Source: Eledone cirrhosa (lineage: Eukaryota). Taken from it: a DNA stretch of 64,000 nt. The notes under the pieces were generated by a model. It was given only the letters and a program-made list of their open reading frames with translations. It was not told the origin of the DNA and did not search any database. Location of the stretch: contig OZ024747.1 of assembly GCA_964016885.1 (NCBI GenBank), positions 70,246,001 to 70,310,000 on the forward strand. The letters are read 5' to 3'. Of the stretch, positions 3,051 to 62,634 are shown piece by piece. The translations under genes and the position numbers were made by a program. How positions within the stretch are numbered: position 1 is the first letter of the stretch; every line of letters starts with the position of its first letter.

Positions 3051-6000
3051 TTACATCACTACCACTATCACCACTATCAGCACTATCAACATTATTAACA
3101 TCACTACCACTATCAGCACTATCAACATTATTAACACCACTACCACTATCACCACTATCAGCACTATCAACATTATTAACACCACTACCACTATCACCAC
3201 TATCACCACTATCACCACTATCAACATTATTAACATCACGACCACTATCACCACTATCAGCACTATCAACATTATTAACATCACTACCACTATCACCACT
3301 ATCAACACTATCAACATTATTAACATCACTACCACTATCACCACTATCAACACTATCAACATTATTAACATCACTACCACTATCAACACTATCAACATTA
3401 TTAACATCACTACCACTATCACCACTATCAACACTATCAACATTATTAACACCACTACCACTATCACCATTATCACCACTATCAACATTATTAACATCAC
3501 TACCACTATCAACACATCAACACCACTATCAACACTATCAACACTATCAACATTATTAACATCACTACCACTATCAACACTATCAACACTATCAACATTA
3601 TTAACATCACTACCACTATCAACACTATCAACATAATTAACATCACTACCACTATCACCACTATCAACACTATCAACATTATTAACATCACTACCACTAT
3701 CAACACTATCAACATTATTAACATCACTACCACTATCAGCACTATCAACATTATTAACATCACTACCACTATCAACATTATTAACATTATTAACATCACT
3801 ACTACTATCACCACTATCAACACTATCAACATTATTAACATCACTACCACTATCACCACTATCAACACTATCAACATTATTAACATCACTACCACTATCA
3901 GCACTATCAACACTATCAACATTATTAACATCACTACCACTATCACCACTATCAGCACTATCAACATTATTAACATCACTACCACTATCAACACTATCAA
4001 CATTATTAACATCACTACCACTATCAGCACTATCAACACTATCAACATTATTAACATCACTACCACTATCACCACTATCAGCACTATCAACATTATTAAC
4101 ATCACTACCACTATCAACACTATCAACATTATTAACATCACTACCACTATCAGCACTATCAGCACTATCAACATTATTAACATCACTACCACTATCAACA
4201 CTATCAACATTATTAACATCACTACCACTATCACCACTATCAGCACTATCAACATTATTAACATCACTACCACTATCAGCACTATCAACATTATTAACAT
4301 CACTACCACTATCAGCACTATCAGCACTATCAACATTATTAACATCACTACCACTATCAACACTATCAACATTATTAACATCACTACCACTATCACCACT
4401 ATCAGCACTATCAACATTATTAACATCACTACCACTATCAGCACTATCAACATTATTAACATCACTACCACTATCAGCACTATCAGCACTATCAACATTA
4501 TTAACATCACTACCACTATCAACACTATCAACATTATTTACATCACTACCACTATCACCACTATCAGCACTATCAACATTATTAACATCACTACCACTAT
4601 CAGCACTATCAACATTATTAACACCACTACCACTATCACCACTATCAGCACTATCAACATTATTAAAATCACTACCACTATCAGCACTATCAGCACTATC
4701 AACATTATTAACATCACTACCACTATCAACACTATCAACATTATTAACATCACTACCACTATCACCACTATCACCACTATCAACATTATTAACATCACTA
4801 CCACTATCACCACTATCAACATTATTAACATCACTACCACTATCACCACTATCAGCACTATCAACATTATTAACATCACTACCACTATCAACATTATTAA
4901 CATTATTAACATCACTACCACTATCAACATTATTAACATTATTAACATCACTACTACTATCACCACTATCAACACTATCAACATTATTAACATCACTACC
5001 ACTATCACCACTATCAGCACTATCAACATTATTAACATCACTACCACTATCACCATTATCACCACTATCAACATTATTAACACCACTACCACTATCACCA
5101 CTATCAACACTATCAACATTATTAACATCACTACCACTATCACCACTATCAACACTATCAACATTATTAACATCACTACCACTATCAACACTATCAACAT
5201 TATTAACATCACTACCACTATCAACACTATCAACATTATTAACATCACTACCACTATCACCACTATCAACATTATTAACATCACTACCACTATCAACACT
5301 ATCAACATTATTAACATCACTACCACTATCAACACTATCAACATTATTAACATCACTATCAACACTATCAACATTATTAACATCACTACCACTATCAACA
5401 CTATCAACATTATTAACACCACTACCACTATCACCACTATCAACACTATCAACATTATTAACACCACTACCACTATCACCACTATCACCACTATCAACAT
5501 TATTAACATCACTACCACTATCAACACATCAACACCACTATCAACACTATCAACACTATCAACATTATTAACACCACTACCACTATCACCACTATCACCA
5601 CTATCAACATTATTAACACCACTACCACTATCACCACTATCAACACTATCAACATTATTAACATCACTACCACTATCACCACTATCAACACTATCAACAT
5701 TATTAACACCACTACCACTATCACCACTATCACCACTATCAACATTATTAACACCACTACCACTATCACCACTATCAACACTATCAACATTATTAACATC
5801 ACTACCACTATCACCACTATCAACACTATCAACATTATTAACACCACTACCACTATCACCACTATCACCACTATCAACATTATTAACATCACTACCACTA
5901 TCAACACATCAACACCACTATCAACACTATCAACACTATCAACATTATTAACATCACTACCACTATCAACACTATCAACACTATCAACATTATTAACATC

Positions 6001-52432: not shown

Positions 52433-53096
52433 TATTTCTTCTATAATATTTTAGCAGAAAGGACAAGAAATCTGACACTCATATTTTTTTCACAAGTGAA
52501 AACAGCTATGATTGAGAATTGAATGTGGACCCAATTAATTCAATGGGATGTTACAACTGTACTGTTCTGATGATAATATTGCTGTTATTTTTATAACTAC
52601 TGAGTTAGTTGAGTCTATCATTTATGTCCTGGGGTAAAATCAGAAGGAGGATATTTTTGTCTTTCATCCTTCTTGGTTTGGTAAAATAAATATTAGTTAC
52701 GTACTAGGCACAGATACGTCTGTGTAGCAGAGACATCTAATCAAATAAGCAAATGGTCTAGAATTGCTCTATAAAATAACTGAGTAAATAAACAAGTAAC
52801 TAAACAAGTAACTTTTATACATTTTCTCCTGTATAGTTTGAATTATAAATTTATACATCTGCTTAACATTGTTTCAATATGTTAAATATTTCCATAATGA
52901 CTATGTGTTTATTCCGTAATTAATGTTGTAGGATGCATGACTGGTTTCTATATATTAAAGATTTCTATTATGTCGCCAATTTTGTTTAAGACGTAAGTTT
53001 AACCTCAAACTTGATTTCAATAATGCCTTAAATTCTATCAATCCTAATGTCACCCTCTACTCAGGAGAGAGAGGGAGAGGGGAAAAGGCCTTACAA

Positions 53097-53545
53097 CTCT
53101 ACCACGCTGTTCGGGAGGCTTATGAGGAGCACGTCTTCCTCTCCTATGGTGAGCACTTCATCATATCCACCTCAGGTGTCAAACAAGGGGATCTGCCCGG
53201 ATCTGCATTATTCGATGACGTAACTAAGATAGTGGCTGGCATGGATTTGAATGTCTAGTATGTTGATGATGCTTCTTTGGAGGGATCTCAAATAAGATCC
53301 ATGCAACTGTGAAGACGATGATTGAGTGCCTTGTTTGTAGGCCTCCATATCAACAGTTCCAAATGTGAACTCTGGCTTCACAACCACCCAGCTTCACATA
53401 AGCTGTAAACTTGATCGCAGAAGCCTTTCCCTCTATCACAACCCCCCCCCCATCGGCATGGTGCGCCCTAGAAGCCACAATTACCGACTTATATTTCAAG
53501 CCTATCTTTCTATCCAAGATCGCTGACCTCGACTAAAATCCAATC
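53097..53545 (+). pseudogene. Decayed non-LTR retrotransposon reverse transcriptase fragment, CRE-clade-like
   Basis: Hand translation from 53097: LYHAVREAYEEHVFLSYGEHFIISTSGVKQGDLPGSALF...DLNV*YVDDASLEG...VGLHINSSKCELW. This matches the RT motifs GVxQGDPLGPxLF, WYLDD and GLxLNxxKCE; in-frame stops are present. Confidence 0.85.
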
Positions 53546-54488
53546 AGAGCCTGCGTTTCCATTGCACTCAGAGTAGAGCTGGCTGCCTGGGTGTAGATTG
53601 TGTCGTTCGCCATACCGATCTAAGCTTAACTATGAGAGTAAATTTGGTATGTTAAGCAATCAGTGAAAACAATACACATGATTCTGTCTTCTTAGACCTA
53701 CTCAGCGAAGCATATTCTAATCAGTGTGTTTGACTAAAAGTGATCAATATATAGAGAACTAGAAGGAAGTGACGCTGATGAATAAACCAATACGGCTGTC
53801 GTTCTCCATACTATATACAAATGCGGTAGTGGTCTACATATTTAGTATAGTCATTTGTAAAACATCAATTAACTGATATTTTGCATGTAATTACAAGACA
53901 AAACATCTCTTAGATTAAAATCTAAAACTAACAAGCAGGGGAAAGAACTCCAGTAAAATAAATTAATTTAAAATCTTTATGTCCGACGCTTTAACATTTC
54001 TATCAATCTATAGCCTAGTAACAGGTACTTTATTAATTTGTAAGAGGCAAAAACCAAGACGCCATCAATGAGGCGCGAAATTGTAAACACTACATAGCAA
54101 ACGACTGTAATAAGTATCTTATATTGAACATAACAATTGGCTACCATTATTAGCTTTTACTAGTGATAATTTCGAACAAATTCTGTCTTATATTCTGATC
54201 AATCAGAACTAAGCGATTCTGCACAACAATAACAACATTGGCGTTGGATTTCCAAAAACATTTGTTTGTCATAAAAATCCTGCTGAATATGGTTAGTCTT
54301 TTATTGTTAAGCAATACCGAAGTCAAATTTGGTGTTCATAATTTCGTAGCCGATAAGAAAATTTATCATTCAAGCACTGTGATTGATTTGATATTTCTAT
54401 AAAGCATTTTAGATGTTAATAGAATTATGATAGAAGACTATCAGCTCAACACGATTTCACATCAATAATCCTGCTACATACATAAATG

Positions 54489-54659
54489 AGAAATAGAAGC
54501 TTTCGCCGTATTTTTTTTTCTAAAGACATTTTAGCCTGATAATGGGGTTTAGAACCCGCAAAGAAATGCAAAAAGATGATTATTGACATGGAAGTCGAAC
54601 CCACATCTTTGGTTATCCAGATTATTGCGCTACCATTACACCAACACATCACCCATCTC
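54489..54659 (-). mobile_element. Element with tRNA-like Pol III head; inverted copy of 54751-54923
   Basis: Minus strand has TGGTGTAATGG (A box) ... GGTTCGACTTCC (B box); ~170 bp aligns by eye to the reverse complement of 54751-54923. Confidence 0.7.
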
Positions 54660-54707
54660 CTTCCAAATAAATTATAAACAACATTCTTAGCAAGTATAAT
54701 GACCAGT

Positions 54708-54959
54708 AAGTATGTTTTGAAAAAGAGAGCGAGTTTAAAAATTAGAAATAGAGATGGGTAATGTGCTGGTGTAATGGTAGCACAGTGGTCTGGATAACCA
54801 TAGATGTGGGTTTGACTCCCATGTATGTCAATACTCATCTTTTTCCATTTTTTTAGTGTTCTAAACCCCACTATCTGGCTTAAATTTCTTCAGTCAAAAA
54901 TTACGGCGAACACTTCTATTTCTAATTTTCAAACTCGCTTGTTGTTTCAAAATATACTT
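54708..54959 (+). mobile_element. ~250-bp element with ~45-bp terminal inverted repeats enclosing a tRNA-like head
   Basis: AAGTATGTTTTGAAAAAGAGAGCGAGTTTAAAAATTAGAAATAGA (54708-54752) matches the reverse complement of 54915-54959; internal TGGTGTAATGG ... GGTTTGACTCC. Confidence 0.7.
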
Positions 54960-56725: not shown

Positions 56726-58144
56726 TACCAAAGTCACACGATATGCTGCAGTAACAATATGACACAATTTGTCAAAGAACGACCTCACATATAGCTATTC
56801 CCTTGCTATATTGATAAATTAATTCATTTGTAACTTATTTCCTTTATTCATGTAACACAACGAAATCATTTGTGTTCCACCGTGCAGTTATTGCAACTAA
56901 AGGTCATATACTGCAGCTAACCTTTTCACACGTTTGAGTTATTCCATTTACACCTCGTATAGTTAATTTATTCAAGTAGCGCAGCACAACTATAAGACTC
57001 ACGTTGTTTTAAGTAGTATATTGTATGATTCCAAGCATAAGCAAGGCTGTATAATTTAAAATTTTGTTTAAAAACTGCATAGTTTTTACTTTATTCCAAA
57101 TGCACAGCACCTTGAGTATTTTCAACCATAGATTTGAATTAGCCAACGCCTTGTGAGTTGAAACTTTGTTCGTCTTTGGTAAACTTACTCTGTGACCCTA
57201 TTTAACACCATCACCTGGACCCTGTGTGTCTTTCAAAGGGTACTGTGCAGCAAGCATTCGTATCGTAGTATAACTTGGTTACTTATCCTAGACACCGTCG
57301 GAGGCTCTGAAAAAGATCATTGACATTGATCTCTTTCAAATTCATTGGAACAAAATAGGAAAAACAAATCAGTCACACATTGAAGCAACTTCATTCTCAT
57401 TAAGTGGTCATTTCACTGACATGCCGAGTAACTATTCCGCTAAATGGCTACAAACGTTCCCTCTTACATTATTAATTTTAAACCATTCTACATTACATTT
57501 ATTGCTGTCTAACTGTTAGTTACATATTGTGGATGTTATTTACCGTCACGCCTCTTCACTATTCCACGCTCACAATGACTAGCAATTCCATTAACGTAGT
57601 ATATTTCGATCAAAAGCGTGTATAACGGTATAACTGTATATTCCCTGTCACAATCCCTACAACAGTAACATTGTCAAGCCTGACAACATTACTTCACAGT
57701 ATCAAAGCAATGTTGCTTTTTGTTATTATTTAGAACTGTTTCAAACTGTACCACGTATTCATTTATTAGCTCTATATTCTTTTTAAGACATCATGTTTTC
57801 TGGGGCATTTTGCTGCAATTTTTAGCATGTCAAGCGACCACATAATGCCTAATTCAATGGCTGGTCTTAGTCGCCAGCATATTGTTATTTAGTTATTATG
57901 CAACTAGATCTAAATTATCCAATAAGTTATCTTTTTGTAAGGTGATAAGGTGTGAATTGAGAGAGATTTTGGCTGTTATTTTTACCAGATCGAACGCCCA
58001 TATAAAAGCTTCCACGTTGCTTTGTATAATGTAATGTGTTAACTATTGTGTTAATTGCTGACTGCAACGTCACCATTAAAGTAGGTTCTGATCATTATCA
58101 ATAAATAACCTTGAAATATTAGCAGTAGCAACAATTTGATAATC

Positions 58145-58362
58145 ATGATGATGATGACGACGACGACGATGATGATGATGATGATGATATTGATGACGGT
58201 GAAGACGATGATGATGATGATGATGGGGCGTAGGAGGAGCAGGGGGAAGATGAGTAGTAGGAAGAGGAGGAAGAGGATGTGGTGTATAAGGAGGTGGAAG
58301 ATAAACATTAAGGTAAAGATAAATGAGGTTGACGGTGATTGATGATGATAGCGGATGATAGA

Positions 58363-58399
<37 letters not shown>

Positions 58400-58720
58400 T
58401 GTAATAATAGTAATAATAATAATAATAATAATAGTAATAATAATAATAATTATCCTCATCATCGCCATCATCATCATCATTATGGTGTGGTGAGTTTGTG
58501 AAAATGATGGACACATGATGATACAGCAAAATTCAATAAGATGTGGGAAGGTATTGGAATATGAAAACAATGAATACGATATAATAGTGATGGTGGCGGT
58601 TGGACTAGTAGTAGATATTTTTGTTGGTAGTGATGTTGATGAGAGTAGAATTAGTGGCTATGGTGATAGTAGTGGAGATAGTGATGGTGGTTGTGGTGTT
58701 GGTGGTGAATGTTATAAATA
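58145..58720. repeat. Compound trinucleotide low-complexity region: (GAT/GAC)n, (AAT)n at 58364-58451, (CAT)n, (GGT/AGT)-rich
   Basis: Read directly; explains the poly-I/M/H/Y ORFs in the track. Confidence 0.92.
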
Positions 58721-58789
58721 TTGATATTATGAAAGGTCTTAGGGGTGTTGTGGGCTTCGCTGCAGTTGATTTGAATGCATATATACACA

Positions 58790-58808
58790 CATGTATATAT
58801 ATATATGT

Positions 58809-58856
<48 letters not shown>

Positions 58857-59027
58857 ATGTGTGTGTGTGTGTATGTGTATATATATATGTATATATGTAT
58901 ATGTTTGTGGGGGCGTATATATGTGAGATTTAACATAATGTTGGTCGTGGAAATGAAGGGGCGATAGTGACAGTATGCACATGTACATATATGCATGCAT
59001 AAATGTCTGGATGTATATATATATATA

Positions 59028-59063
<36 letters not shown>

Positions 59064-59266
59064 GAGAGAGAGACACACATATCAATGTGCATGAGATTCT
59101 ATGCATTTAAGTTAGAAGAATTAAGTGAAAGTTATGAAGAGATATGATGGGAAAACAGAGAAATAAAGAAATACAGAAAGGAAAAGGAGAAATGGAGAGG
59201 GAGAAGAAGACAACGAATGAAAAAGAGAGAGAGAGAGAGGGGGAGAAGAGAGAGCGAGAGGGCGAG

Positions 59267-59344
<78 letters not shown>
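58790..59344. repeat. Cluster of (TA)n, (TG)n, (AG)n and (AGAT)n microsatellites
   Basis: Read directly. Confidence 0.95.
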
Positions 59345-59347
<3 letters not shown>

Positions 59348-60020
59348 TCATGTAATAAGGAAATGAAGCCCTTAAATAATTATGATTTCTCGAATTCTTA
59401 TAAGAGATAAAATGTAGCTGATGTAGTTATGTTCAAATAATACAAGATTGCTACCACTGTAGTCCGACATTGACCAGTTCTTGGCAAGTTAACTTACATG
59501 TACTGACGTCATCTGCAATATTGTAATGGAGGTGTTGACATCAAAGATGTGACGTAGTAGAAGGCGTGGAGAATGACTTCTACATATTAACCGGGAAAAA
59601 ATTATTTTAATAAATTTTACTCAAGTAGATTAGTGTCAGTCGTTTGGGTATTAGTCTGTACTCGTTGTTGTTGGTATTGTTGATGTTGATGTTAACCTTA
59701 GGTGACAACTAGTCAGGCGGATTTATGATCAAACACATTCAATCATCCTAGATACCCATATTTCTCCTTTCATTTAGGAGATTTGGCTGTTATTTCTAGT
59801 AGATCTTATCACTATAATATAAATCGAAACTAAAATATTTGGAAAAATATATGACAAAGAATCCTGATAATCATAATTTTTTTATCTTATTTTTTGGTGA
59901 CAAGTCACGATTGTCTGATCTCCACTAGACTTTTGAAGAAACTCTATTTCTCTCGTATATGTAATATTTCCAAACTTTCCTCTACCATGTGCGGGCTTGT
60001 TTCTAGCTGTAAGACCCCAC

Positions 60021-60053
<33 letters not shown>

Positions 60054-60081
60054 ATCAAAAGATGGTTAAAGGAGTTCCATG

Positions 60082-60152
60082 TATTTTATTATGCGCATTT
60101 CAAAAACAAACATCATCATGCAATAATATTTGTGTTTTCATCAGATAAAACA
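60082..60152 (-). ncRNA. Type I hammerhead ribozyme (identical mirror copy in the left arm)
   Basis: Exact reverse complement of 60267-60337. Confidence 0.75.
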
Positions 60153-60266
60153 GGAGAACATGATATGAAGGCTAAAAAACACTTGTGGATAGTGCAGTTT
60201 TAAATCAATGTTGATTTAAAACTGCACTATCCACAAGTGTTTTTTAGCCTTCATATCATGTTCTCC

Positions 60267-60337
60267 TGTTTTATCTGATGAAAACACAAATATTATTGCA
60301 TGATGATGTTTGTTTTTGAAATGCGCATAATAAAATA
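60267..60337 (+). ncRNA. Type I hammerhead ribozyme (predicted fold)
   Basis: Stem I TGTTTTAT (60267-74) / ATAAAATA (60330-37); core CTGATGA (60275-81); 16-position stem II with one mismatch and a GCAT loop (60282-60317); GAAA (60318-21); minimal palindromic stem III TGCGCA; NUH triplet AUA, predicted cleavage after 60329. Confidence 0.75.
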
Positions 60338-60466
60338 CATGGAACTCCTTTAACCATCTTTTGATTTTTTGATCTTATATTATGTATACTCCAGTCCTAC
60401 AAACTGTAGAGTGCTTCTTATCCGATATCTGCATTGCTTTATTGTACTACAATAAAACTCACCTCC

Positions 60467-60528
<62 letters not shown>

Positions 60529-60529
<1 letters not shown>

Positions 60530-60729
60530 CGAAGGAAATGTGGTAAGGAACCAGGTGGACCATAACGCACCAAAGTACTCAATACTTGAGGTAGTAGAGT
60601 GGGTAATAGGAACCAGTAAGACCCCGACAGCTGAGCTCAAGCCGTTTCGACGGCTAATTCTGGACTCAATCAGTCCAGAATTAGCCGTCGAAACGGCTTG
60701 AGCTCAGCTGTCGGGGTCTTACTGGTTCC

Positions 60730-60732
<3 letters not shown>
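60529..60732 (-). mobile_element. Second insert between (TA)n tracts ending in a 61-bp-arm palindrome with a partial hammerhead; Penelope-like pseudo-LTR candidate
   Basis: Arms 60606-60666 / 60672-60732, loop CAATC. Each arm has CGAAAC-GGCTTGAGCTCAGCT-GTC-GGGG (GAAA, stem III, GUC). Flanked by (TA)n at 60470-60528 and 60730-60750. Confidence 0.6.
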
Positions 60733-60772
<40 letters not shown>

Positions 60773-60780
60773 ATGACTGT

Positions 60781-60863
60781 GAAGGTACATGGCTTAGTGG
60801 TTATAATGTTGATCTAGCAATCGAGAGATTGTGAGTTCGATTCTCGGACCAGGTGATGTATTG
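60781..60863 (+). mobile_element. tRNA-derived SINE head (third family), interrupted
   Basis: A box TGGCTTAGTGG and B box GAGTTCGATTC with tRNA-like spacing, but no intact cloverleaf. Confidence 0.7.
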
Positions 60864-60900
60864 TAGGCATGTCAAACTGAGGGTCCCCCGACGGCCTCAT
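60864..60900 (+). mobile_element. Possible hAT-type left terminus
   Basis: TAGGCATGTCAAACT...GGCC resembles the CAGGCATGTCAAAC termini of hAT elements; no matching right terminus found. Confidence 0.35.
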
Positions 60901-62352
60901 GGGTCACATATGTGTTGTCTGAGGGCCACACACGACAACTAAGTGTTCCACAACATATATGTTCCTGAGCATGACATTTTATAATTAAATAATGAAATAA
61001 ATCAGGTAAAGTATCGTTTGTGACGAGAAAATAGTGGACGGAATGATCTGCGGGTAATCAAACAACGCATCTCCCGTACGGACGCGTCTCTGTAACCTTT
61101 TTTCTTTTTTTCTACGTATTATCTTGCAGGGTAACATTATTCATGAACAGTAAGTCAAATATTAAAAAAATAAATGATTTCTCTTCGTAACCTTTCCAGA
61201 GATTTGCCGGAGGCCAAAGCACATGGCGACAGTCGGGAACAAGAAAATTCTGGAAGCATTATTATTAATATGAACAACGCGGGGGAATTTTAGACAACAT
61301 TTTATATTATACATTAATATTACTTCAGTTGTTCTCAGTCGTGTTTAGACAAATACTCTTTTGTTGTCGCATGCAATATATTCAGCGATTAGCATACGTT
61401 TCCTTTCTCCTTTCTTCTTTTTTTTTATATCAAGTAGTTGGTCAGAAATCCTCTGCCATAACTGAATTGAAGTAACCTTCAAATTCTAATGATCTTACGC
61501 ATATACAATGCTTTATTCTAGGCTTTTAGCAGGTTTATACCATTTTTATGTGTATTTTTCCCAATTAAAGTCCCTTTTCGGAATTTTGTCTCTGTATCAT
61601 TACTTCGATATTTCTCTTAAGTTTTGCCGGTGTTGCTTCGAGTAACACGATTGTCCGCTTTTATTTCATACATTTTTTCGTGTTGAGCAGTTATTCTATC
61701 AAGTCTTGTCCATTTCATGGTCATAAATCACAACAAGTTCGATGTTTGAAATGTTTCCCTGCCGAGGTGTTATTTCAATGTTATAACCGTGCCCTTGCAT
61801 GCATTTCTTTAGAATTAATTCTGTAATAATTTCCTTATGTCAGAAATAAAATATATTGACATATCTGCGTGAACGGATCATTTCGCAAATAGTTAACAAT
61901 CATCAACATTTTAGATATATTTACACGAATGCTTGGTGAGTTCAACCTAATACACTATATATTAATATCCATATTCAGAATAAACGTGACGTTTAATGTT
62001 TTTGTTGTTGTTGTTTTGGTCTTCATTAAATTCATGTTGAAAGCGCTCCGCTTTTGCCTGTAACCTCTTTTTATCAAGCAGTGAATAACTACGACTACAA
62101 AAAGTTTCCCGATAGGACCATTCAGTCTTTGTAGAACAATGTTACCAAATGTGTGCATTCCATGAGACCTATTATGAAAAACGTAACGTACAGAGAGAAA
62201 TAAAGAAAGAAAGAGAGAGAGAGAGAGTGTGGAGGAGTGATGTAAATACATATATATAATGTAGACAATGATATGTTTAAGAAGATGTTTGGCCTTCATT
62301 TTACCTCCCATTTCGCATTGTCTTACCCTTCTTTTGCCACATTATATACTAT

Positions 62353-62356
<4 letters not shown>

Positions 62357-62422
<66 letters not shown>

Positions 62423-62634
62423 AATGAATACATTGCAAATGACCAAGTTAGCTAGGTTGAAAAATACTAAGTTAAAATAATATGGTTTGCCTGTCTCGAT
62501 TTAAAATAATAAATTAATAAAAATAACAAACCTATATTGGCATTGGCCGTGATACTCGCACAAATTCTAACGGCTCGGAAATATTCCCTTCTTTGAGCTA
62601 TTTAATTGTAAAAGACTATTTCGAGTTTATAACT

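Follow-up and report, generated by a model that had tools for sequence, protein, structure and literature searches.

A palindromic insertion in (TA)n of Eledone cirrhosa as a 5'-truncated, head-to-head end of a hammerhead-bearing Penelope-like element, likely twin-primed

The palindromic insertion and its surroundings

The window, a stretch of 64,000 nucleotides of Eledone cirrhosa DNA, contains a perfect palindrome of 312 bp, the longest at the locus, in which arms of 155 nt each (60054-60208 and 60211-60365) match with 0 mismatches around the spacer TG, reproducing the mismatch-free arms and 2-nt spacer described in an earlier note on this DNA. The arms reach 158 nt when a 99% match is allowed, and the adjacent (TA)n mentioned in the same note is present as tracts at 60023-60051 and 60470-60528. 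The extent given there, 60047-60380, stops short on the right, as the insertion continues to ~60471. The perfect match stops after 60365 because the right arm carries an 8-nt duplication (60366-60373), and a tail of ~88 nt then follows to ~60471. Comparison with a longer copy of the same family (locus L031), matched over 5097-5256 in inverted and over 5092-5347 in direct orientation, likewise brings the insertion to about 60471. The outer boundary of the tail-less arm, near 60047, is blurred by TA-like sequence. The parts of the locus are as follows (PLE, Penelope-like element).

60023-60051, no strand: (TA)n target microsatellite, left, from the repeat scan
60047-60208, minus strand: tail-less arm; from the fold site the element end runs leftwards to a fixed short end; matches L031:5097-5256
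60082-60152, minus strand: type I hammerhead motif, the plus-strand one in mirror image, with the cut predicted 3' of 60090
60202-60217, no strand: fold junction at the family-wide stop site, the putative RNA 5' end
60208-60383, plus strand: tailed arm, the portion common to both arms, including the 8-nt duplication
60267-60337, plus strand: type I hammerhead motif, predicted cut after 60329
60384-60471, plus strand: PLE 'tail' (~88 nt), on one arm only
60470-60528, no strand: (TA)n target microsatellite, right
60529-60732, no strand: adjacent but separate stub from a second Hydra-type PLE family

Elsewhere in the window, a 49-kb tandem array of a 45-bp unit (6-49018, 1,151 copies), likely a satellite, contains frames without a stop codon that reach 10,165 codons on the minus and 6,690 codons on the plus strand. 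A broken reading frame at 53000-53660 contains GVKQGD and YVDD, which we take to be RT-like motifs, probably in the remnant of a non-LTR retrotransposon, and a decayed inverted repeat at 54484-54959 (arms of 30-74 nt, 77-90% complementarity) is possibly an old element. The neighbouring second-family stub (60529-60732) has 61-nt arms at 60606-60666 and 60672-60732, with the tail on the left arm and only the 3' half of the hammerhead. Its family, with 24,864 exact matches of a 22-mer and an ORF in L141 and L143, shows the same tailed and tail-less ends; full copies carry a hammerhead-like motif with a long helix III and the core UUGAGAA, which belongs to the U3-A8 type named in the available text of PMC4209133. 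In this second family, ~80 of the 100 arms listed end within loop II, at a TTTTCAT motif resembling the stop site of the window's family, so that the stubs hold only half of the hammerhead motif. At L142:2194-3549, an unrelated Hydra-type ORF is nested between two ends of the second family, and at L047:3190-5419 a broken PLE with a DKG motif lies beside a stub of the window's family.

The parent element and its hammerhead

Copies of the window's family were found by exact sequence patterns in the 3.0-Gb genome. A 22-mer across the arm core gave 14,832 exact matches (7,427 + 7,405), compared with 0 for the reversed control. Among the first 100 matches listed, neighbours within 8 kb made up 36 pairs, of which 32 were head-to-head, 3 same-strand (all more than 3 kb apart) and 1 tail-to-tail; 15 of the 32 head-to-head pairs listed were spaced by 140-160 bp, like the window copy, and 13 by 1-5 kb. 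Copy length varies continuously between stubs and ORF-bearing insertions of 5 kb, all with the same ends. Eight sampled arms are identical to the window arm over 150 columns, and the description of the window copy as young is upheld.

The parent unit, mapped on L031, is 3,733 bp long and consists of the 5' start, an ORF, a 3' UTR of ~1.1 kb, the hammerhead and the tail. The ORF, present in the longer copies, encodes 800 aa from its first ATG in L031 and appears intact there, with the motifs YRDD, DKT, RW, CxCx5C, CxxC and CxH, and IY..YFG. In tandem copies L035, L036, L149 and L150 the tail end is joined to the element's 5' start ahead of the ORF, which is the partial tandem typical of PLEs (pLTR). 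Eighteen homologues of the L031 ORF were retrieved at E ≤ 1e-20 (29-38% identity), and some members of its language-model neighbours (0.95-0.98) carry GIY-YIG, RVT_1 or HTH_animal families. Pfam found neither an RT nor a GIY-YIG family in the L031 ORF or in 7 aligned relatives, and a solved-structure search with the L031 ORF returned nothing. We regard it as almost certain that the palindrome arms are the end of an autonomous PLE. One of the two options offered earlier, an inverted pair of PLE pLTRs, is thereby borne out: the arms are the hammerhead-bearing end of a PLE with an RT/GIY-YIG-type ORF, and this 800-aa ORF is found within the long copies of the arm, where such a neighbour had been suggested as a check.

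On motifs alone, the parent would be assigned to the Hydra clade, for which the available sections of PMC8557442 give DKT, RWK-like, CxCx5C, CxxC and CxH motifs, a C-terminal endonuclease and (TA)n targeting. The resemblance to that account extends to a single ORF with the RT followed by a C-terminal endonuclease, the CxCx5C linker, CxxC and CxH flanking the conserved E and N, insertion in (TA)n, a hammerhead near the end, an inverted copy truncated on its 5' side, and a tail confined to one end. The window's family differs from the same account in having RWT rather than RWK, a unit of 3.7 kb (mostly <3 kb in the Hydra clade), a tail of ~88 nt (30-40 bp given for PLEs) and about 15,000 end copies, and its hammerhead is unlike all five Hydra hammerheads compared from the supplement of that paper. 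The Naiad clade was rejected because the endonuclease is C-terminal and a hammerhead is present.

As the earlier note had claimed, each strand of the palindrome carries a type I hammerhead motif, the two being mirror copies in the two arms. On the plus strand, stem I (60267-60274/60330-60337) encloses CUGAUGA (60275-60281), stem II (60282-60317) and GAAA (60318-60321), followed by UGCGCA and UA; the palindromic stem III occupies 60321-60328 and A17 is 60329. On the minus strand, the core lies at 60144-60138 and GAAA..UA at 60101-60090. The closing of stem II by A-U was also seen. Rfam hammerhead models, proposed at the time as a check, gave a blank: no hammerhead family was among the 56 matches at E ≤ 10 in 58000-62500, and the matches at the locus were hairpin-type miRNA models only, with scores under their thresholds. 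As the 96-nt hammerhead fold was also not more stable than its shuffles (z −1.14), the ribozyme call is based on motif and covariation instead.

A motif scan of the sampled loci yielded 54 distinct hammerhead variants, including 9 from diverged relatives whose stem II sequence is unrelated, and 22 sequences (the window, 12 family variants and the 9 diverged relatives) were aligned for covariation. The motif used to pick them fixes the core and part of stem I, and thus only the helix covariation is informative. In this alignment 95.9% of cells are paired (33-56% in slid controls), two-sided change occurs in 10 of 27 pairs, with 59 such cells against 20.8 in shuffles, and helix III changes from G-C to A-U in 9 of the 22 sequences with its self-complementarity kept. 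Two of the five covariation measures did no better than the shuffles: the number of pairs with two-sided change (123/500) and the pair types (494/500). The covariation sought among genomic copies is accordingly present in the hammerhead helices across diverged relatives. A two-copy cofold forms an 8-bp intermolecular helix III at −34.7 kcal/mol, compared with −11.3 kcal/mol per monomer, and, together with the helix III covariation, it supports the minimal self-complementary stem III and dimer-type folding put forward previously. The earlier note expected transcripts starting near the centre to be free to self-cleave; for such a transcript, the predicted fold of 60208-60469 gives stem II a pair probability of 0.97-0.99 and stem I only 0.03-0.04. 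Cutting is predicted to need a dimer or the element's own protein. We read the hammerhead as a component of the parent PLE kept by selection.

Compared with the minimal PLE hammerheads in the text available from PMC4209133, the motif is alike in its type I topology, small palindromic helix III, predicted dimer and long helix II. It differs in that helix II comprises ~15 bp with an internal mismatch and closes with A-U (G-U in older copies) in place of G10.1-C11.1, in the lack of an extra nucleotide between 9 and 10.1, and in a helix I of 8 bp. The same source reports dual hammerhead motifs on opposite strands, 100-700 bp apart, in Schistosoma. Next to diverged hammerhead relatives at L062:1882-1953 and L090:113-182 there are likewise perfect fold junctions, and these relatives terminate in (TA)n whether or not a tail is present. 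A relaxed scan recovered many more hammerhead-like motifs (in L012, L016, L017, L060, L061, L068, L081, L116, L121, L128 and L148), several with a palindromic helix III (CTAG, CCGG), and the genome therefore likely holds many more PLE families.

Outer ends, cut site and fold point

The ends of the family were surveyed at 160 loci, all from one contig (C1) and picked by patterns independent of end type, which merged into 104 segments; with the window, these provided 163 arms and 73 head-to-head pairs. A tailed end is combined with a tail-less end in 66 of the 73 pairs (66 of 71 classifiable, p = 1e-14); the others comprise 3 pairs tailed on both sides, which contain an internal tandem join, 2 pairs tail-less on both sides and 2 with other ends. 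Of 143 outer ends, 140 lie directly against TA repeats. PLE copies that are inverted and truncated, and PLE tails present on one side only, are already in print (PMC8557442, in part), as are palindromes at inverted PLE junctions (PMC3846280, in part). Among the 51 pairs in which both arms are near-complete, the median difference between two arms is 1 base when they belong to one insertion and 7 when they come from different insertions, and in 38 of these pairs no other arm is closer than the partner. Of the 66 tailed/tail-less pairs, 13 have a tailed arm whose start falls 9 nt or more later in the element than that of the tail-less arm, 4 have the opposite arrangement, and in the other 49 the arm starts are equal or extend beyond the query. 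As neither arm contains the other in those 13 pairs, they point to two passes rather than a fold-back copy.

Arms beginning at the predicted hammerhead cut site are rare: the 42 matches comprise 26 junctions and 16 substitutions or short deletions, as judged by eye, compared with 7-8 junctions among 56 matches (also by eye) at a control site 3 nt upstream. With this one control, and with microhomology differing between the two sites, the excess at the cut site may be taken as a weak genomic hint of self-cleavage. The scarcity of such arms indicates that insertion templates were essentially uncut, and hammerhead cutting would not be part of the insertion route. Folding at the cut site itself was rejected, since the fold point lies ~120 nt upstream of the cut.

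Genome-wide, 1,889 palindromic junctions lie at the fold site of the window copy, with varied centres; 18 of the 50 junctions listed have the same perfect palindromic form and the rest vary, the junction in the window being 4 nt shorter than the commonest one. Past the fold site, 2,602 arms continue with C, 2,855 with A/T and 5,266 read on into the 3' UTR, counts that leave out other G-starting sequence; 3 of the 100 non-G arms listed are read-through of an older subfamily. Arms also stop at the fold site where the partner is cut elsewhere or where (TA)n follows, a pattern more readily explained by an RNA 5' end than by a pause site. Among the 73 pairs, a single one combines a stopped arm with a read-through arm, a proportion affected in part by locus picking, which favours matching pairs. 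In contigs from six public runs, which are of unspecified kind, do not bear on expression or start sites and may derive from the sample that was assembled, 10 of the 15 joints listed end at 60208, and in public run X2 the summed depth, a rough measure, drops from 1.07 million to 0.47 million across the fold site.

In L1 products, an extra G from cap copying has been described (PMC4038843, in part). The base after the stop site, read by eye in 100 listed junctions, is C in 44, A in 44 and T in 12, with only ~6 clearly untemplated C; most of the C can be explained by templating from the partner arm or from a TATC close by, making the cap signature weak. Joining at the stop site could be favoured by its own sequence, a short palindrome. 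We take the context of the site, TC|A, to resemble an initiator. The Drosophila Penelope element has an internal promoter with Inr and DPE (PMC2377424, in part). From the way the arms stop, we lean, by a little, towards the fold point being the element's transcription start, i.e. the RNA 5' end, within the pLTR. The literature covered on PLEs (mainly titles and abstract openings, with subscription journals thinly represented) describes neither a start-site fold point nor twin priming.

Twin priming and alternative origins of the palindrome

The window feature is, with good confidence, a 5'-truncated, head-to-head insertion of the end of a hammerhead-bearing Hydra-type PLE in (TA)n, likely twin-primed on one uncleaved RNA. 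The element's endonuclease would cut both strands within (TA)n, after which one target strand would prime at the tail end and the other ~90 nt upstream on the same RNA. Both cDNAs would extend as far as the 5' end of the RNA, which is probably where transcription starts within the pLTR, and their 3' ends, finishing in the self-complementary ATAT, would anneal or be end-joined and then fill each other in. The palindrome would thus be rebuilt at every insertion, likely as a dead-end by-product. Twin priming from both target strands is probable, judged from the arm geometry and from in vitro data on another PLE clade. In those experiments, as presented in the available text of PMC11167929, the protein of an anole PLE cuts the two target strands and extends each of them, and its RT starts at two sites bracketing the tail, with insertion that does not need hammerhead cleavage. 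The Anolis Poseidon element resembles the window's family in these two fixed, tail-bracketing ends, in its AT-rich target and in an apparently uncleaved RNA template; it belongs to another clade, its ORF starts inside its hammerhead (here, ~200 nt past the cut site across the tandem join), and the sections available mention neither inverted copies nor a fixed fold point (PMC11167929). The fuller proposal, in which the fold point is a capped start and the stubs also record twin priming from two fixed sites with 3'-end joining, is nearly an even call that falls slightly on the doubtful side.

A mirror arm could also arise from the same PLE by self-priming, with the cDNA or an antisense template folding back at the junction palindrome and copying itself, a route put forward for rotifer PLEs on the basis of palindromes at their inverted junctions (PMC3846280, in part). 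The perfect palindromic form of the commonest junction (the 18 of 50 listed), the variants shared by the arms of one insertion and the short templated duplications in several centres are all compatible with such copying. Simple fold-back, however, cannot yield arm-private sequence on both sides, which is held by 13 of 66 pairs and by long copies such as L034, and many stopped arms are joined to non-palindromic partner positions or to (TA)n; we consider self-priming unlikely.

Less probable still is that the palindrome is a non-autonomous unit, MITE- or retrozyme-like, moved whole by the PLE; the retrozyme/MITE-like unit that was the second option of the earlier note is not supported. Near-identical short palindromes do number ~1,900, with the eight identical arms among the sampled ones, and animal retrozymes are reported to derive from PLE pLTRs (bioRxiv 10.64898/2026.07.22.740005, in part); the non-LTR retrozymes described there share with the window feature a short, non-coding, PLE-derived sequence with a type I hammerhead, but are head-to-tail tandem units where the window holds a head-to-head pair. 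The arms, in contrast, belong to an autonomous PLE, the centres differ between copies, the lengths grade from stubs up to ORF-bearing insertions of 5 kb whose ends are unchanged, and the outer ends are asymmetric, with a tail on one side only. The fixed length, symmetric terminal inverted repeats and conserved interior of a MITE were not found, nor were head-to-tail short units each with a hammerhead among the 36 listed pairs, or tandem short hammerhead units among the 100 matches listed. Perfect palindromes are a known class of artefact, and none of the listed public-run contig pieces spans the window copy, but a fold-back read or assembly error is highly improbable given flanks and ends that differ between the sides, an 8-nt duplication confined to one arm, the recurrence of this geometry in 66 of 73 pairs, public-run contigs joined at 60208 and the 1,889 same-site junctions with varied centres.

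The twin-primed insertion of a PLE end thus remains our preferred reading, and the window palindrome as an object is an ordinary stub of a known retrotransposon class. Its family adds hammerhead variants missed by Rfam, with helix III covariation that fits the dimer model. It is young, and its ~15,000 end copies and ~1,900 same-site stubs provide large counts and sharp predictions on PLE ends; the origin of the inverted ends and tails of PLEs is named as an open question in the available part of PMC8557442, for which the family can serve as a test system. If the proposal is true, the long-puzzling inverted-repeat-plus-tail structure of PLEs would be explained, and PLE start sites would be readable from genome sequence alone.
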